Shown: piece by piece, positions 7,602 through 12,136 of the stretch
Position numbering within the stretch: position 1 is the first letter of the stretch
Layout of the letters: every line of letters begins with the position of its first letter
Sequence record: KP010268
Source of the DNA: Shigella phage SfMu
Reading direction: 5' to 3' (one strand)
Length of the DNA stretch: 37,146 nucleotides
Translations under genes and position numbers: made by a program
Notes under the pieces: generated by a model
Seen by the model: the letters and a program-made list of their open reading frames with translations, nothing else
Told to the model about the DNA's origin: nothing
Database searches by the model: none

Positions 7602-7970
7602 GTGAATTTTCCGGGGAATGAGCGACCTTTCTCGCCAGAGTTGTGGACTGTACAACGCTCCGCATCAGGTAACAGTTGCAGGCCAAGAACATCGCGCATT
7701 CCTGCACATCTGCGGGAGCAGTCAAAAGAGCTGGCGAAAATATGGCAGGAGAATATTCCGGTCACTTATGCCCGTACTGACGCTCTCTTACCCGCACTGG
7801 GACTGGATTTCAGCGCAACAATATTCGGCCCGCTCCGGTGGTTCCGTGTTGGTGATGTGATTTACGTCATGACAGGGATGACTCCCGCACAGGGCCGCAT
7901 GACTGAAATCCTTTCTGACGAATTTATCCGGGCGCAAAAACAGGCGGAGGTAAACAATGGAAAACAATGA
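7602..7970 (+). CDS. Hypothetical early protein (122 aa), start uncertain
   Basis: Only long same-strand ORF filling this interval; no convincing RBS at GTG 7602; competing 80-aa frame at 7618..7860 looks less protein-like. Confidence 0.4.
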   Translation: MNFPGNERPFSPELWTVQRSASGNSCRPRTSRIPAHLREQSKELAKIWQENIPVTYARTDALLPALGLDFSATIFGPLRWFRVGDVIYVMTGMTPAQGRMTEILSDEFIRAQKQAEVNNGKQ

Positions 7971-8139
7971 AACATCGTATTCGTGGCTGGGGAAATTTAC
8001 CACGGTGAAACAGGAATGCCCGACCTGCGGTAATGAATCCCCTGAATATCTGAAAGAGTGCCCTCATTGTGGCGGGCAGAAATGCAACCACTGCGATATG
8101 GGCGATGACACGGCGTGCATGAATTGTGAAGGTGAGTGA
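7957..8139 (+). CDS. Small double zinc-ribbon protein (60 aa)
   Basis: Four CxxC motifs (CPTC, CPHC, CNHC, CMNC); GGAGG RBS upstream of ATG. Confidence 0.6.
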   Translation: MENNETSYSWLGKFTTVKQECPTCGNESPEYLKECPHCGGQKCNHCDMGDDTACMNCEGE

Positions 8140-8140
8140 T

Positions 8141-8449
8141 ATGAATAATGGTGTATTTTCAAAATCAGAAGAGCTTGCCGCCCTGCTGATTGCCGGTGGT
8201 TTGCCGAAAAAAGAAGTGCATGACTTTGTGAATTTTGTATATGAGCCGTCTCATGAAAAAGCTATTGACGAGGTCATGGCGTACCGGTTTGGCATTGTTG
8301 CTGAGTCACTGAGTCCTCACTGGATTATTGAAAATCTCCGCGCTATTGCTGATGGCAACGATAAATCAGCAGCCGTTGCTGCACTGGATGTGTTACGGCA
8401 AATGAGTCTGAAATTTTATCCTGAATTTATTCTGAGGGCCGCAAAATGA
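8141..8449 (+). CDS. Hypothetical early protein (102 aa)
   Basis: ATG 8141 directly after previous stop with AGGTGA RBS; six-frame ORF from GTG 8126. Confidence 0.6.
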   Translation: MNNGVFSKSEELAALLIAGGLPKKEVHDFVNFVYEPSHEKAIDEVMAYRFGIVAESLSPHWIIENLRAIADGNDKSAAVAALDVLRQMSLKFYPEFILRAAK

Positions 8450-8748
8450 ACAATGAAGATAAATTTACTCCCCTTAATATTGATAACGTCATGGCTGAAA
8501 AAGGGATGCTGGAACGTGTTCGCGCTATCGTTGAATATGGTATTAAGCATAATCTCACCGCCAGAGAAGTCCGTGACATTATCAACCGCGAAATGAATCG
8601 TCTGGAAACAGTAGTGGCACTGCAAAATGAAACAGCCCGCGAGGAGTACATCCGCCGCAGGCTGGGGTTATCAGACCAGGATATTGTTACTGACGCTCAT
8701 GTGTTTGAGGCTTTTGAGATCCGTCAGCATCTGGGTCTAACGAACTGA
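8446..8748 (+). CDS. Hypothetical early protein (100 aa)
   Basis: ATGA start/stop overlap with previous gene, GAGGG RBS. Confidence 0.6.
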   Translation: MNNEDKFTPLNIDNVMAEKGMLERVRAIVEYGIKHNLTAREVRDIINREMNRLETVVALQNETAREEYIRRRLGLSDQDIVTDAHVFEAFEIRQHLGLTN

Positions 8749-8953
8749 TAATGTCTTCCATGATCTTTGACAGTTGCATGTTTTCGCGGCGGCTTGTTCT
8801 TATTGCAGGCGCATCTTTTAAAATCTCTGCTGAAGAGCTGAAAATGGCCTGGCCCTCTTCTGCGGTGATGATCGCCTTCTTCACCAGAAGGCGCACCAGT
8901 GCTGATGCAATCGCATAACCTGCAACATCATAAGGTTGTACATTATTTTCCAT
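8687..8953 (-). CDS. Candidate reverse-oriented small ORF (88 aa) in the early operon
   Basis: Minus-strand ORF spanning the 274-bp plus-strand gap before gemA; GAGG RBS 5 nt upstream of its ATG; no homology recognised. Confidence 0.3.
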   Translation of the reverse strand: MENNVQPYDVAGYAIASALVRLLVKKAIITAEEGQAIFSSSAEILKDAPAIRTSRRENMQLSKIMEDIISSLDPDADGSQKPQTHERQ

Positions 8954-9022
8954 AAAATCCTCTCTGATTGATGTGTAAATTCAGGCGGTGTTGCAGCACC
9001 GCCTCTTTCCGGAGGTACGATC

Positions 9023-9574
9023 ATGAATCGCACATCCCTGATTAAATTAATCCATGTCGCCCGTCGGGAGCTACAACTCGACGACGACACTTACCGCGCT
9101 TTTCTGATGCAGAAAACGGGCAAAATCAGTTGCCGCGAGCTGACGGTAACGCAACTGGAACAGGTGCTCGATGCCATGAAAGAACGCGGCTTTAAGAAGC
9201 TGAATAAACATCCACGTCGCCGCTTTAAGGGGCATGTCACGCCCCGCGAGAAGGTATACAAAGTCTGGCAGCAGATGGCAGAAGACGGTTTTATTACCGA
9301 TGGCGGTGATGTGGCGCTGGATAAATATGTTCAGCGCCTGACGGCGAAACGTAATGGCGGACAGGGTGTTTCCACGCTGGCGTGGTGTCATGGCGACACC
9401 CTGTTGATTGTTCTCGAAACTCTCAAGCAGTGGCATATCCGCTGTATTCGTGAAGCCTTTTCCCGTCACGGGCTTCCGTTGCCGGTCAGTCCGTCCGGGC
9501 GTGAACTGCGCGGCTATGATGCCATGACGGCGGCTTATGCCCATGCCAGAAAGACACGGAGGATGGCACAATGA
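9023..9574 (+). CDS. gemA: GemA-like early protein (183 aa)
   Basis: Size and position immediately upstream of mor match Mu gemA; GGAGG RBS. Confidence 0.6.
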   Translation: MNRTSLIKLIHVARRELQLDDDTYRAFLMQKTGKISCRELTVTQLEQVLDAMKERGFKKLNKHPRRRFKGHVTPREKVYKVWQQMAEDGFITDGGDVALDKYVQRLTAKRNGGQGVSTLAWCHGDTLLIVLETLKQWHIRCIREAFSRHGLPLPVSPSGRELRGYDAMTAAYAHARKTRRMAQ

Positions 9575-9960
9575 CGGAAGATTTATTTGGTGATTTGCAG
9601 GATGACACCATCCTGGCACATCTTGACAATCCCGCAGAGGATGCGTCACGCTTTCCGGCACTGCTGGCGGAGCTGAACGATTTACTGCGCGGGGAGTTGT
9701 CCCGGCTGGGTGTTGATCCTGCCCATTCACTGGAGATTGTTGTGGCTATCTGTAAGCATCTGGGTGGCGGTCAGGTCTACATTCCACGCGGTCAGGTTCT
9801 GGACTCGCTGATTCGGGATTTGCGTATCTGGAATGATTTTAACGGTCGCAACGTCAGCGAACTGACCACCCGTTATGGTGTCACTTTCAATACGGTTTAC
9901 AAGGCCATTCGCCGGATGCGACGGCTGAAATACCGCCAGTACCAGCCCTCACTTCTGTAA
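9571..9960 (+). CDS. mor: Mor, middle operon regulator (transcription activator)
   Basis: 129 aa MTEDLFGDLQDDTILAHLDNPAED... recognised as Mu Mor; last gene of early operon; paralogous to C downstream. Confidence 0.9.
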   Translation: MTEDLFGDLQDDTILAHLDNPAEDASRFPALLAELNDLLRGELSRLGVDPAHSLEIVVAICKHLGGGQVYIPRGQVLDSLIRDLRIWNDFNGRNVSELTTRYGVTFNTVYKAIRRMRRLKYRQYQPSLL

Positions 9961-9965
9961 ACAGT

Positions 9966-9990
9966 AAAGCCGGTTAATCCGGCTTTTTTT
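9966..9990 (+). terminator. Rho-independent terminator at end of early operon
   Basis: AAAGCCGG-TTAAT-CCGGCTTT hairpin followed by T-run, directly after mor stop. Confidence 0.8.
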
Positions 9991-10037
9991 ACGTCCTCAA
10001 TATCCTGTGATGAATAACCGTACCGGGGGAAATCATC

Positions 10038-10268
10038 ATGGGTAAAGGCTGGAATGCATCCTTTCATCTTGGCAGACGTGAGCGGCTGCGTCAGGAGGTT
10101 TTGCACCGTGTCGCCGGTGGGCCACGGCCTGCGCCCCGCGACTATACCGGTCATGATGGCACCCACGGCAGTTATTACATGAAAGGCTGGCAGTCAGTTG
10201 ATATGCCGGAAATTCTTCACCACTGTCAACGTTATAAGGAAAAATATTGTGTACAGAAAATTCAGTGA
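10038..10268 (+). CDS. Hypothetical middle-operon ORF (76 aa)
   Basis: ORF between early terminator and C; no recognisable RBS, basic and Gly/Pro-rich composition. Confidence 0.35.
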   Translation: MGKGWNASFHLGRRERLRQEVLHRVAGGPRPAPRDYTGHDGTHGSYYMKGWQSVDMPEILHHCQRYKEKYCVQKIQ

Positions 10269-10380
10269 TGAATGTTTCGGGCCGTCCACGCTGATTAATG
10301 CGATAAAAGTGATTGCCCTTGTGGTTCTGATAACCATCAGTGCCGTGGTGTATCTTTTTGTCTGTTAACCGGGGGAAAAT

Positions 10381-10803
10381 ATGCAGCATGATTTATTTGA
10401 ACACGATCCGGCAATTCGCCAGTTAATCGGGCATATTGATAACATCCCGGCCCCGGAACTGGAATCACGCTGGCCCCGTTCAGTGGTTGATCTGATTGAT
10501 GTTCTGGAAAACGAACTGAAACGCCAGAACGTCAGCAATCCCCGTGAGCTTGCCCGTAAACAGGCCGTTGCCCTGTCCTGTTTTCTGGGGGGGCGGCAGT
10601 TTTACATCCCCTGCGGCGATACGATCCTGACCGCGTTACGCGACGATTTGCTTTACTGCCAGTTCAATGGTCGTAACATGGAAGAACTGCGTCGCCAGTA
10701 CCGCCTGTCCCAGCCGCAGATCTACCAGATTATTGCCCGCCAGAGAAAGCTGCATACACGACGTCATCAGCCTGATCTGTTCTCACCTGAAAGCCAGAAA
10801 TAA
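10381..10803 (+). CDS. C: C, late gene transcription activator
   Basis: 140 aa MQHDLFEHDPAIRQLIGHIDNIPAPELE... recognised as Mu C; Mor paralog (shared ...FYIPCGDTIL / QVYIPRGQVL and ...CQFNGRNMEEL / NDFNGRNVSEL). Confidence 0.9.
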   Translation: MQHDLFEHDPAIRQLIGHIDNIPAPELESRWPRSVVDLIDVLENELKRQNVSNPRELARKQAVALSCFLGGRQFYIPCGDTILTALRDDLLYCQFNGRNMEELRRQYRLSQPQIYQIIARQRKLHTRRHQPDLFSPESQK

Positions 10804-10894
10804 CCGGCATCCTGCCGGTTATTTCCTGTCACCATAATCCCGCACCTGCCATCTGATTTTTTAGACTGCCATCAGAGCATTTTTTCAGGGAAGC
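10804..10894 (+). promoter_or_regulatory. Putative late promoter Plys (C-dependent), overlapping a hairpin at the C stop
   Basis: Motif CATAATCCCGCACCT about 48-56 bp upstream of lys ATG, shared with the region upstream of gene I; hairpin AACCGGCA-TCC-TGCCGGTT at 10802..10820. Confidence 0.5.
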
Positions 10895-11413
10895 ATGATG
10901 GCGGGGATACCAAAAAAACTGAAAGCCGCACTGCTGGCGGCAACGATTGCCGGTGGCGGTGTGGGTGGTTATCAGGAAATGACCCGTCATTCTCTGATCC
11001 ATCTGGAAAATATCGCTTATATGCCTTACCGCGATATTGCCAGTGTGCTTACGGTCTGTGTGGGACATACCGGGCCGGATATCGAAATGCGCCGTTACAG
11101 CCATGCGGAGTGTATGGCTTTTCTCGACAGTGATTTAAAACCGGTTTATGCGGCAATCGATCGTCTTGTCAGGGTGCCGCTGACGCCATATCAGAAAACG
11201 GCGCTGGCAACGTTTATTTTCAACACCGGTGTTACCGCATTCAGTAAATCAACGCTGCTGAAAAAACTCAATGCCGGTGATTACGCCGGAGCGCGTGACC
11301 AGATGGCCCGCTGGGTGTTTGCCGCAGGCCATAAATGGAAAGGACTGATGAACCGTCGCGAAGTGGAAATGGCTATCTGGAATATCAGGGGGGCGGATGA
11401 CCTTCGCCAGTAA
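10895..11413 (+). CDS. lys: Endolysin (lysozyme-like, SAR-type N-terminus)
   Basis: 172 aa; Gly/Ala-rich weakly hydrophobic N-terminus KKLKAALLAATIAGGGVGGY typical of signal-anchor-release endolysins; recognised as Mu Lys. Confidence 0.88.
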   Translation: MMAGIPKKLKAALLAATIAGGGVGGYQEMTRHSLIHLENIAYMPYRDIASVLTVCVGHTGPDIEMRRYSHAECMAFLDSDLKPVYAAIDRLVRVPLTPYQKTALATFIFNTGVTAFSKSTLLKKLNAGDYAGARDQMARWVFAAGHKWKGLMNRREVEMAIWNIRGADDLRQ

Positions 11414-11783
11414 AAGTTTACTGCTGGCAGCCGTGTTTGCCGCCGTTCTGTCCGGGGTGTTGTGGCACAGGCTGGACAGCACCCGCCACGATAACCAGAC
11501 GCTGCGCCGTGAATTACAGACGGAGCAACAGGCCCGCAACACGGCTGAATGGTTGTTACACAGTCAGGAACAGACGATGCAGGTATTTTCCGCTATCCGT
11601 GCCGCAAATCGTGCCGCGCGGCTGGCAGACGAGACAGAACATCATGATGCAAAACAAAAAATTACAACCGCCATTACCGGTGACAATTGCAGCACTCGTC
11701 CTGTGCCTGCCGTTGCTGCTGACAGGTTGCGGGAACTCGAAAAACGCACCCGTGCCATCGGTGGTGATCCTGCCCGAAACTGA
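11397..11783 (+). CDS. Inner-membrane spanin (i-spanin) candidate
   Basis: 128 aa with N-terminal transmembrane helix SLLLAAVFAAVLSGVLW then coiled-coil-like region; directly after endolysin. Confidence 0.7.
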   Translation: MTFASKSLLLAAVFAAVLSGVLWHRLDSTRHDNQTLRRELQTEQQARNTAEWLLHSQEQTMQVFSAIRAANRAARLADETEHHDAKQKITTAITGDNCSTRPVPAVAADRLRELEKRTRAIGGDPARN

Positions 11784-11985
11784 TGCAGAACTGACGGAAG
11801 CAACGCCCGTTCCGCCCATGCCACAGCCCCTGACGTGGGGAGCATCCCTGCTCTGGAATGCTGACCTGCTGATGGCGCTCGGGCAGTGCAACCGCGACAA
11901 GGCATCAGTCCGGGAACAGGAGACCCGGAGGAAAGAAATTTATGAACGAAGACCAGAACCGGGCGGTGGCGCTGCTGCTCGCTGA
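11644..11985 (+). CDS. Outer-membrane lipoprotein spanin (o-spanin) candidate, overlapping i-spanin in another frame
   Basis: MMQNKKLQPPLPVTIAALVLCLPLLLTGCGNSKN: signal peptide with lipobox LTGC; Pro-rich mature region; start embedded in the i-spanin gene. Confidence 0.7.
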   Translation: MMQNKKLQPPLPVTIAALVLCLPLLLTGCGNSKNAPVPSVVILPETDAELTEATPVPPMPQPLTWGASLLWNADLLMALGQCNRDKASVREQETRRKEIYERRPEPGGGAAAR

Positions 11986-12136
11986 ACTCTGGCAGGGGAA
12001 TACCCGTGATATTCCCCGTCCGGCGGCGTATGACCCGCCTGTATTGTGCGCCGGTTGCGGTCGTGAGCTGCGGCCTGATGTGCTGAGACAGCAGCCGATG
12101 GCGAACTACTGCCACTGGTGCCGTGGAGCAGAATAA
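11942..12136 (+). CDS. Small Cys-rich protein (64 aa) in lysis region
   Basis: CAGC ... CHWC zinc-ribbon-like motifs; GGAGG RBS upstream of ATG. Confidence 0.55.
   Translation: MNEDQNRAVALLLAELWQGNTRDIPRPAAYDPPVLCAGCGRELRPDVLRQQPMANYCHWCRGAE

Follow-up and report, generated by a model that had tools for sequence, protein, structure and literature searches.

What occupies the interval between gene 14 and gemA in Shigella phage SfMu, and does it encode a protein? The window analysed here is the whole sequence of record KP010268 (37,146 nucleotides). A first-pass annotation had singled out an 88-codon open reading frame (ORF) running leftward in this interval, against the rightward early operon, and proposed that it could be an antisense-encoded accessory gene, a regulator of gemA and mor, or a chance ORF. 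All coordinates given there hold: the ORF itself, a GAGG motif (complement of 8959-8962) 5 nt 5' of its ATG (complement of 8951-8953), an overlap of ~60 bp with gene 14 (62 bp, gene 14 ending at 8748), a 274-bp gap up to the gemA ATG at 9023, and an inverted repeat at 8984-9003. The features of the region are as follows.

8446..8748, plus strand: gene 14 (Mup14; phrog_6075), 100 aa, convergent with gene 15, which its last 62 nt overlap
8623..8664, minus strand: intrinsic-terminator-like element, with a hairpin at 8633-8664 and a U-rich tract, UUUCAUUUUG, at 8623-8632
8687..8953, minus strand: gene 15 (homologue of Mu gp15/Mup15), 88 aa plus stop
8746..8968, no strand: 223-bp segment absent from natural deletion variants, from alignment
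8751..8918, plus strand: 'shadow' ORF of 55 aa, equal to Mu_54 (AAF01092.2) of AF083977.1, in our judgement not a gene
8958..8965, minus strand: ribosome-binding site of gene 15, AGAGAGGA, read from the sequence
8984..9003, no strand: perfect 7-bp inverted repeat GGCGGTG-N6-CACCGCC (N6 = TTGCAG), between gene 15 and gemA
9023..9574, plus strand: gemA (Pfam GemA PF06252, E = 2.5e-30)
9966-9986: bidirectional terminator-like hairpin, just past mor

The leftward ORF is gene 15 of phage Mu

Judged by sequence comparison, the ORF at 8687..8953 is Mu gene 15, which is already catalogued without an assigned function. Its product shares 95% amino-acid identity with Mu gp15 (NP_050619.1) over 88 aa, with four substitutions (Q35K, I51M, N58K and M59L), and matches phrog_8747 at E = 1.3e-60 over positions 1-88 of 88. 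The two ORFs are alike in length (88 aa), position, strand, ribosome-binding site and overlap with gene 14. In Yersinia phage vB_YpM_5, otherwise the closest to the phage of the window, the interval is 100% identical. The first-pass annotation recognised no motif in the product, and indeed no family or fold match points to a function, but it missed that the ORF is an annotated gene of Mu; the profile search that it proposed as a check returned the phrog_8747 match and no functional family.

The gene was listed as 'putative F-134' in M64097, the left-end sequence of 1991, and RefSeq NC_000929.1 annotates gp15 at 7896..8162 complement. In AF083977.1, the updated GenBank record of Mu, gp15 was swapped for the plus-strand 55-aa Mu_54, so that the two public annotations of Mu, a reference phage, conflict over the 274-bp gap, one placing a leftward gene in it and the other a rightward ORF. 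The NCBI annotation pipeline (PGAP) calls the gene 15 ORF in all six of the examined E. coli genomes with a full-length copy. We found no mention of Mup15 in the literature, and no strand-specific RNA-seq or transcriptome of Mu.

Coding evidence for gene 15

Across their first 66 codons, which align without indels, copies of the Mu, STEC388 and Salmonella types are 48-52% identical at the amino-acid level, and the sense frame is free of stops in all three types while the other five frames hold 1-7 stops each. Frame, start codon and ribosome-binding-site position are preserved across lineages at ~60% nucleotide identity, and a Shine-Dalgarno-like purine-rich element stands at the equivalent position in the STEC388, Salmonella, D108 and Stx1-prophage lineages. 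Between the Mu and STEC388 types, differences in the 205 nt outside gene 14 at codon positions 1, 2 and 3 number 22, 18 and 38, and dN/dS outside the gene 14 overlap is ~0.29 (0.27-0.31). Unsaturated pairs within the Stx1-prophage lineage give pN/pS of 0.17-0.42, the sense frame being lowest in every pair. The alignment with relatives that had been proposed as a check therefore favoured the minus-strand frame, which is kept and changes by coding-type substitutions.

Codon usage gave a similar picture. The gene 15 core scores 0.342 bits/codon, where true genes average 0.324 +/- 0.144 and antisense pieces -0.276 +/- 0.142; none of the 108 wobble-sharing antisense pieces reaches 0.342, and control chance ORFs score -0.044 and -0.613 bits/codon. 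The tail that overlaps gene 14, residues 69-88, scores -0.074 bits/codon, and the frame has a dN/dS of ~1.3 in the overlap. By these measures residues 1-68 are a constrained core and residues 69-88 an unconstrained tail, in which the frame runs through gene 14 to the next stop. All full-length copies whose frame was checked, 23 of them IMG/VR loci, are intact and lie between gemA and gene 14. Each of the 23 loci has an ORF of 88 or 79 aa that converges on gene 14 with overlap, and on every contig long enough to include gemA, that gene lies ~70 nt upstream on the opposite strand. Fourteen of these loci are gp15-type.

Two other accounts of the interval have to be weighed against these data. A chance ORF or decaying remnant, its conservation mere recent common ancestry of the prophages, would fit with a tiny family restricted to E. 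coli and Salmonella, with natural deletions and two damaged copies (P0004, frameshifted; P0007, IS-truncated), and with a dN/dS near 1 among the closest relatives (window vs Mu, 5 differences of which 4 are non-synonymous; STEC388 vs RIVM, 0.71 from few differing sites), which implies weak constraint or few recent changes. Long antisense ORFs do arise by chance in this genome, one of 219 aa lying on the minus strand antisense to gemA/mor (9071..9730); its codon usage, however, is non-coding (-0.044 bits/codon), so that the length of an ORF is by itself no evidence for a gene. What raises 8687..8953 above chance is the combination of a frame, start and ribosome-binding-site position conserved at ~60% nucleotide identity, coding-like substitutions and gene-like codon usage, and homologues without any remaining DNA match hold the same site and strand. 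With the frame open, coding-like and syntenic across five lineages, the chance ORF entertained in the first-pass annotation is highly improbable.

The other account takes the plus-strand ORF as the real gene, translationally coupled to gene 14 as part of the unidirectional early operon, and the minus-strand ORF as its shadow. The interval had been described as occupied by the leftward ORF instead of a rightward gene; the leftward ORF is there, but not alone, as Mu_54 covers the same DNA (8751..8918) on the opposite strand. Mu_54 was the curators' choice over gp15 in the current GenBank record. In Mu its ATG follows the stop of gene 14 at a distance of 2 nt; in the STEC388 lineage start and stop overlap (TGATG). 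Its frame is open in both lineages with some third-position bias and a dN/dS of 0.47. Its wobble positions are shared with gene 15, however, and the frame stays open as a by-product of this. The Salmonella lineage has no counterpart of the ORF, its Mu_54 frame being closed by three stops in the stretch aligned with codons 1-66 of gene 15, while in the D108 and Stx1-prophage lineages the gap is spanned by a minus-strand homologue and by no plus-strand ORF. The stop of Mu_54 also varies in position, giving products of 55 aa in Mu and 61 aa in STEC388, and the most conserved nucleotides, those encoding QPYDVAGY, fall past it in Mu. Its codon usage of 0.049 bits/codon is at about the 2nd percentile of true genes, and it lacks a Shine-Dalgarno sequence, the annotated ribosome-binding site being just 3 nt. 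Comparison with the Salmonella, D108 and Stx1-prophage lineages thus largely refutes Mu_54, and we give very little weight to it as the gene of this gap. Collectively, the comparisons make it quite likely that gene 15 is a genuine, non-essential protein-coding gene directed leftward against the early operon.

A small family at a fixed position

Gene 15 belongs to a small, fast-evolving family with at least five lineages (Mu, STEC388 type, Salmonella type, Stx1-prophage type and D108 type) that is restricted to Mu-type phages of E. coli and Salmonella. Its position is constant: members lie in the interval between gene 14 and gemA, on the opposite strand, converging on the 3' end of gene 14, and a gene 14 homologue stands beside the leftward ORF in all five lineages. 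The gp15-type layout is seen in Mu, vB_YpM_5, E. coli and Salmonella prophages, and the gp15-type IMG/VR loci.

Two further protein families have members at the gene 15 site. The family phrog_32893 consists of a 79-aa ORF of Mu-like prophages, for example inside Stx1 phage LC727895, on the gene 15 strand; phrog_38610 is a 119-aa ORF of D108 and Mu_3F6, likewise on the reverse strand. Both converge on gene 14 with overlap, as gene 15 does, and have in common with gp15 an N-terminal helical domain of the approximate pattern [YFL][DG][VI][AT][GA][YF]..[AV][SG].L...L...[GA].I[TSN]. They differ from gp15 in length and in their C-terminal parts, DNA similarity is gone and pairwise BLASTP is not significant. 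The Stx1-prophage ORF is a member of phrog_32893 (E 2e-40) and matches the D108 ORF by BLASTP at E = 3e-7; phrog_32893 in turn matches gp15-type proteins at E 2e-4 to 5e-8 and the D108 ORF at 5e-7. Kinship between gp15 and the D108 ORF rests on this intermediate, since direct BLASTP of the two is not significant and hhalign (E = 0.0035, probability 9%) is suggestive only. The D108 copy is unannotated in both GQ357916 and NC_013594.

Wider searches did not extend this range. Only copies from E. coli and Salmonella prophages came back when gp15, the D108 ORF and a joint profile were used in word-indexed searches and when 1.84 billion representatives were searched in full with phmmer; a scan of one genome per species gave zero gene 15 homologues. 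A 1438-aa repeat protein, P0005, was rejected as a homologue because its match is a summed-repeat artefact. Paralogy of gp14 and gp15 through an inverted duplication was likewise rejected (hhalign probability 0.8%).

Natural deletions and comparison with morons

The accessory-gene option of the first-pass annotation gained support from natural deletion variants. The isolated phages vB_YpM_3 and vB_YpM_23 and E. coli JCKP02 lack precisely the 223-bp segment, which takes out codons 1-68 of gene 15 together with the ribosome-binding site; the junction is uncertain by 4 nt owing to a TGAT repeat at both ends. In JCKP02 and vB_YpM_3 the gap between gene 14 and gemA is accordingly 51 bp rather than 274 bp. 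E. coli OZ040490 gives a two-piece match like those of the deletion variants, known from the match pattern alone, and in FDAARGOS_1058 and elppa5 gene 15 is missing along with gene 14. The precise deletion in isolated, named phages indicates that gene 15 is dispensable, and the sequence comparison supports its classification as an accessory gene.

Phage morons are independently transcribed accessory cassettes of lambdoid phages. Gene 15 is moron-like in being dispensable, in its presence or absence among otherwise near-identical phages in a variable slot, in having its own terminator-like element and in an orientation that escapes the promoter of the surrounding operon. Unlike morons, it has no promoter detectable in sigma-70-like scans, and its family, instead of being scattered, keeps a single position beside gene 14 from lineage to lineage. 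The terminator-like element also lies in the backbone, within gene 14, outside the deletable segment. Finally, codon usage is phage-typical and the G+C content (0.46-0.49) is much like that of the neighbouring region of gene 14, so that nothing in gene 15 looks foreign.

The inverted repeat and the control of gemA

Gene 15 and gemA are divergent with start codons 69 bp apart, and the perfect inverted repeat lies between them. As plus-strand RNA the repeat folds at -18 kcal/mol (z = -2.4), followed by a T tract that is weak in the window (TCTTTCC) and strong in other lineages. Its stem is invariant and its loop variable in 8 of 8 aligned sequences, including D108 and Kp4866-3, the latter with unrelated content in the slot, and variants deleted for gene 15 retain it. 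By this alignment the repeat belongs to the conserved backbone on the gemA side and not to gene 15. As a repeated operator it was rejected, the window holding a single exact copy.

The first-pass annotation had also raised a regulator of gemA and mor, and gene 15 might act on this divergent unit through the palindrome. The divergent layout invites this reading, and the GenBank Mu record annotates the 'semi-early' or constitutive gem promoter of gemA/mor exactly there (Mu 8151..8217). According to the account in PMC3820752, the gem operon is constitutively expressed in lysogens (Paolozzi and Ghelardini 1992). However, the stem is unchanged where the slot holds an unrelated gene (Kp4866-3) or is empty (vB_YpM_3, JCKP02), which argues against a gene-15-specific operator, and phages without gene 15 have been isolated and named, which implies that gemA-mor control does not require it. 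No helix-turn-helix or other DNA-binding family was matched in Pfam, NCBIfam or PHROGs, and the helices in the structural model, 16-17 residues long, would fit a helical hairpin better than a helix-turn-helix. We therefore consider a regulatory role of this kind very unlikely.

A predicted terminator and the expression of gene 15

The terminator-like element begins 23 nt past the gene 15 stop, inside the coding sequence of gene 14, and its hairpin has a free energy of -21.3 kcal/mol (z = -3.05). In a sample of four lineages only, the 10 outer pairs are paired in 100% of cells; two pairs show compensatory double changes, and four vary on one side and stay paired, with G-U at all four, which on the plus strand would be A-C mismatches. 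The minus-strand hairpin is the more stable in the window (-21.3 vs -17.9 kcal/mol), in D108 (-20.0 vs -13.7) and in Salmonella (-23.7 vs -13.8), and the element was found in L023 as well. Part of the conservation is due to gene 14, as the hairpin lies within the codons of a conserved motif of that gene, AREEY-IRRRLG. These features predict that gene 15 has its own same-strand terminator.

Promoter searches were negative. A consensus scan of 8400-9300 came back empty, as did the leftward strand of 8000-12000; in a position-weight-matrix scan of six sequences the best scores, 4.5-7.3, stayed under the median shuffle maximum (7.5) for every lineage. Independent transcription of gene 15 is thus putative, no sigma-70-like promoter upstream exceeding shuffle level in any lineage; its promoter may be non-canonical or dependent on an activator. 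Rfam gave no meaningful match in 8300-9300.

The arrangement suggests that gene 15 would form its own leftward transcription unit, whose mRNA would end at the intrinsic terminator written antisense into gene 14. Such a unit could not be expressed from the early promoter Pe and would need a promoter between 8965 and the hairpin at 9966-9986. Expression would be likeliest in the lysogen, with Pe silent, and after induction convergent transcription from Pe would oppose it.

The functional product of such a unit might instead be the leftward RNA, or transcription itself, damping read-through of the early operon into gemA-mor and setting middle-phase timing. The means envisaged are convergent transcription and an antisense RNA over the gene 14 3' end. 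All five lineages preserve the convergent overlap of the two genes, a minus-strand terminator-like element lies inside gene 14 and a plus-strand terminator-like hairpin lies directly ahead of gemA, all consistent with this idea. However, a dN/dS of ~0.3, the conserved N-terminal domain and the conserved ribosome-binding site argue that the peptide itself is selected, and the scans identified no promoter. An RNA mechanism could also accompany the protein function instead of replacing the protein, and as the sole product of the locus we consider RNA extremely unlikely.

The gene 15 protein

Returning to the protein, the product is apparently a small, soluble helical protein. AlphaFold2 predicts three helices, with pLDDT of 78-90 at residues 11-40 and <50 in the tail; the conserved helical hairpin spans residues 6-47 and leads into a variable middle, the third helix and the disordered tail. 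No family of known anti-phage defence proteins in PADLOC-DB was matched at E <= 0.1 by gp15, the Salmonella type, the D108 ORF or the Kp4866-3 ORF. The conserved hairpin with a fast-evolving remainder points away from an enzyme or classical DNA-binding regulator and suggests a protein-binding accessory factor directed at the host or a competing phage.

More specific proposals are tentative. Gene 15 and its diverged counterparts could be a conserved, lysogen-expressed leftward unit that gates early read-through into gemA-mor, or a prophage inhibitor of a host or rival-phage target; we hold this pair of readings to be unlikely as stated. Gating past the hairpin at 8984-9003 could be by convergent transcription or by the small helical protein. 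A parallel is offered by Fc02, a transposable Pseudomonas phage for which PMC9936078 describes overlapping opposite-strand genes with superinfection-exclusion activity. As described there, Fc02 is Mu-like, its small opposite-strand genes overlap near the early operon, and one of them is transcribed in lysogens, in which the early operon is kept repressed. The Fc02 genes lie beside the repressor and ner, however, whereas gene 15 lies beside gemA, and there is no sequence relationship.

Significance

Gene 15 is an ordinary, known gene and represents no new kind of system. The comparative evidence decides the annotation of the gap in favour of gp15, a modest correction, and shows that D108 has a counterpart that its records omit. 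It also unites phrog_8747, phrog_32893 and phrog_38610 in one small family of fixed position and orientation. As the only gene of the Mu early region that could not be driven by Pe, gene 15 is a candidate for a lysogen-expressed function. Should the gating reading be true, the convergent module of gene 14 and gene 15, its terminator lying antisense within coding DNA, would add a new regulatory feature to a textbook phage, and gene 15 would help to set the timing of the transition from lysogeny to lytic growth in Mu-type phages.

Locus and annotation history

Yersinia phages vB_YpM_5 and vB_YpM_6 match the window at 100% identity over 8400-9100, and bacteriophage Mu does so at 98% starting at 8443, so this is a Muvirus (Mu-type) genome. 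The first-pass annotation had placed a reverse-oriented 88-codon ORF in the gap before gemA, and its coordinates were all borne out. The ATG has a GAGG 5 nt ahead of it, the convergent overlap with gene 14, first put at about 60 bp, measures 62 bp, and the inverted repeat GGCGGTG-TTGCAG-CACCGCC is present at 8984-9003.

Features of the locus
8446..8748, plus strand: gene 14, an ORF convergent with gene 15
8687..8953, minus strand: gene 15, an ORF of 88 aa
9023, plus strand: ATG of gemA, 274 bp past gene 14
8633-8664, minus strand: terminator-like hairpin within gene 14, 23 nt past the gene 15 stop, then UUUCAUUUUG

The minus-strand ORF is a real finding, though not a new one: it is Mu gene 15, catalogued before. 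The Mu RefSeq record NC_000929.1 annotates this very ORF as Mup15/gp15 (7896..8162 complement), whose product is 95% identical to that of the window. A 'putative F-134' was entered at this site as early as the 1991 left-end sequence M64097, the ORF is annotated in the vB_YpM_5 record, and the NCBI pipeline PGAP calls it in all six of the opened E. coli genomes with a full-length copy. The updated GenBank record AF083977.1, revised by Jacobs-Sera and Hatfull according to the 2022 mBio paper on Mu lysis, instead carries a plus-strand 55-aa CDS, Mu_54 (AAF01092.2, window 8751..8918), and marks Mu 8151..8217 as a 'semi-early promoter'. Because the two records disagree, the question becomes which strand codes.

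Several flanking features were also seen. Genes 13 and 14 are separated by a 107-aa plus-strand gene at 8126..8449 that the vB_YpM_5 record annotates and Mu lacks, since the Mu match begins at 8443; its product has no Pfam match and by eye resembles a 102-aa ORF of Klebsiella phage Kp4866-3. The ~420 bp from mor to the C-like gene (9960..10380; C-like gene 10381..10803) hold short ORFs only, and G+C drops to 40% at 10200-10399. After mor, Mu has gp18 and gp19 first, and the window apparently departs from Mu here.

The minus strand codes

The length of the gene 15 ORF is uninformative by itself, because a 219-aa ORF with non-coding codon usage lies antisense to gemA/mor (9071..9730, minus strand). 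That ORF, which has equivalents in D108 and PhiR68_1, is best read from its codon usage as a chance shadow ORF.

Comparison with relatives, which the first-pass annotation had proposed together with a profile search of the product, gave a minus-strand frame conserved with coding-type substitutions. The homologous interval is ~72% identical in DNA in prophages of 27 complete E. coli genomes, and in the two examined, STEC388 and RIVM_C019217, the ORF is exactly 88 aa with 50-51% identity to the window protein and no indels. In a Salmonella enterica lineage, found by a full phmmer search and contig look-up, it has 86 aa and 45% identity and is likewise flanked by gemA and the gene 14 homologue. 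Over the 205 nt that do not overlap gene 14, Mu-type and STEC388-type sequences differ at 22, 18 and 38 sites in codon positions 1, 2 and 3 of the minus-strand frame, with dN/dS 0.29 and 51% amino-acid identity.

The rival reading, that Mu_54 is the coding gene in the gap, has in its favor a frame that is open in the Mu and STEC388 lineages, with mild third-position bias, dN/dS 0.47 and 42% identity. These two frames have common wobble positions, and this sharing accounts for both the openness and the bias. The Mu_54 stop, however, varies in position (55 versus 61 aa), and the equivalent ORF is gone in the Salmonella lineage, where three stops interrupt the frame over the aligned gene 15 codons 1-66. 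Only the minus-strand frame, of all six, is free of stops across the Mu, STEC388 and Salmonella lineages. Codon usage, scored as log-odds trained on the window's 24 long plus-strand genes, bears both on Mu_54 and on the proposal that gene 15 is a chance ORF.

Codon scores (bits/codon)
Gene 15 core, residues 1-68: 0.342
True-gene pieces of 68 codons each: 0.324 +/- 0.144
Wobble-sharing antisense pieces: -0.276 +/- 0.142, maximum 0.172
Mu_54 frame, plus strand: 0.049
Chance-ORF control 9071..9730, minus strand: -0.044
Chance-ORF control 8427..8651, minus strand: -0.613

The GC skew also goes negative at 8800-9100, which is what a gene on the opposite strand should produce. Gene 15 is thus very probably a real protein-coding gene, which leaves little room for a chance ORF or for a function carried by the RNA only.

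The constraint does not extend to the final 20 codons, which overlap gene 14. There the constraint rests on the gene 14 frame (dN/dS 0.32) and not on that of gene 15 (~1.3), whose codon usage in this stretch is non-coding; the tail is therefore a run-on to the next stop. Between lineages, identity is highest at residues 1-37 (59-68%), falls to 26-32% at residues 38-68 and is absent in the tail. From a seven-sequence alignment AlphaFold2 predicts three helices (residues 10-25, 31-47 and 61-72), with pLDDT of 78-90 at residues 11-40 and below 50 at residues 78-88. The product has been proposed as a regulator of gemA-mor, a less likely reading; its size, helical hairpin and fast-evolving remainder lead us to guess that gp15 works by binding another protein.

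A leftward gene family between gene 14 and gemA

Mu and D108 have no DNA similarity from gene 13 to the palindrome at 8984-9003. The 377-bp gene 14-gemA gap of D108, 'empty' in its record, nevertheless holds an unannotated ORF that overlaps the end of gene 14.

L005:1111..1470 (~7853..8212 complement in GQ357916 / NC_013594), minus strand: D108 ORF of 119 aa, phrog_38610

At the equivalent position in a Mu-like prophage inside the Stx1 phage LC727895 lies a minus-strand ORF of 79 aa belonging to phrog_32893 (E = 2.4e-40). The profile search of the 88-aa product yielded family links through phrog_32893, which matches gp15-type proteins at E from 2e-4 to 5e-8 and the D108 ORF at E 5e-7. Through it the D108 ORF is seen to have the N-terminal domain of Mu gp15; hhalign aligns gp15 residues 3-39 with D108 residues 29-65, and BLASTP of the 79-aa ORF against the D108 ORF gives E = 3e-7. 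Among nine IMG/VR loci of the 79-aa type, pN/pS is lowest in the sense frame whichever are compared (0.17-0.42), and no other frame is free of stops. IMG/VR loci of either type are all intact and converge on gene 14 (23/23), with gemA ~70 nt upstream on the opposite strand wherever the contig reaches that far. Synteny, profile links and frame data together show that a leftward gene is kept at this site in five lineages.

One further candidate was rejected. The metagenomic protein P0005 (1438 aa, repetitive, acidic) reached E = 1e-23 against gp15 as the sum of 12 weak repeat matches and is a false positive, a caution for phmmer tables obtained with short queries.

Salmonella Mu-like prophages also carry, in two contigs (L010 and L011, 5052..5387), a second reverse gene, of 111 aa, between gemA and mor. 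It adjoins a 63-aa forward gene, has no significant family and is absent from contigs L012 and L013.

Natural deletions and variable content

A 223-bp deletion (window 8746-8968, TGAT at both junctions) in Yersinia phages vB_YpM_3 and vB_YpM_23 and in E. coli JCKP02 takes out gene 15 codons 1-68 and the ribosome-binding site, leaving a gene 14-gemA gap of 51 bp. E. coli OZ040490 gives a two-piece search match like that of these variants. FDAARGOS_1058 is without genes 14 and 15, elppa5 is without genes 13-15, and two further copies are damaged, one by a frameshift and one by an IS256-family element. The site holds only rightward genes in PhiR68_1, and in the unannotated Kp4866-3 record an ORF unrelated to gene 15 again runs leftward, convergent on the upstream plus-strand gene.

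L016:3001..4444: in a Salmonella Aberdeen prophage, IS256-family transposase gene (Transposase_mut) inserted in the gene 15 homologue at its 3' end, with replacement of the protein tail
L015:1066..1470, minus strand: Kp4866-3 ORF of 134 aa, phrog_585 (E = 1.5e-15), weak DUF2513 match (E = 0.014)

Given these deletions and the variability of the region, gene 15 is an accessory gene, yet it differs from a sporadic insert in that the family keeps company with gene 14 and holds one orientation.

Candidate transcription signals

The hairpin at 8633-8664 folds at -21.3 kcal/mol (z = -3.05). Its 10 outer pairs are paired in every cell of the Mu, STEC388, Salmonella and D108 alignment, with compensatory double changes at two pairs; four others vary on one side with pairing kept, and each of these includes G-U pairs, which would read as A-C mismatches on the plus strand. 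The Stx1-prophage lineage also has the hairpin, then AUUUUGUUUU. This conservation is partly owed to the gene 14 codons that contain the hairpin. Since the minus-strand form is the more stable in D108 (-20.0 versus -13.7 kcal/mol), Salmonella (-23.7 versus -13.8) and the window (-21.3 versus -17.9), the hairpin points to a candidate terminator for a leftward transcript.

Consensus scans came back empty for sigma-70-like sites in 8400-9300 and for leftward ones in 8000-12000; when the 250 nt ahead of the start codon were scanned in six sequences with a position-weight matrix, the top hits scored 4.5-7.3 against a shuffle median maximum of 7.5. A bidirectional-looking terminator-like hairpin at 9966-9986, directly past mor, presumably terminates the early operon, in which case any gene 15 promoter has to fall between there and ~8965. 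Gene 15 would probably be an independent leftward unit terminating inside gene 14. More tentatively, its orientation suggests that it might be on in the lysogen while the early promoter Pe is silent, and that convergent early transcription might oppose it after induction.

The palindrome at 8984-9003, single-copy in the window, has an invariant stem and a variable loop in all eight aligned sequences, including D108 and Kp4866-3 with their unrelated content, and is kept in the gene-15-deleted variants. This constancy argues against a gene-15-specific operator and suggests that the palindrome is part of the gemA-side backbone. The plus-strand T tract after it is weak in the window (TCTTTCC), whereas Salmonella has a strong one, TCTTTTTC, as does the Stx1-prophage lineage, ATTTTTTAT. 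Judged from sequence, the palindrome resembles a plus-strand attenuator or terminator separating the accessory genes from gemA-mor, or else an RNA structure preceding gemA.

For the Mu-like phages, the analysis resolves the annotation conflict between gene 15 and Mu_54, adds an unannotated D108 homologue, joins three PHROG families as one and identifies a candidate terminator embedded antisense in gene 14.
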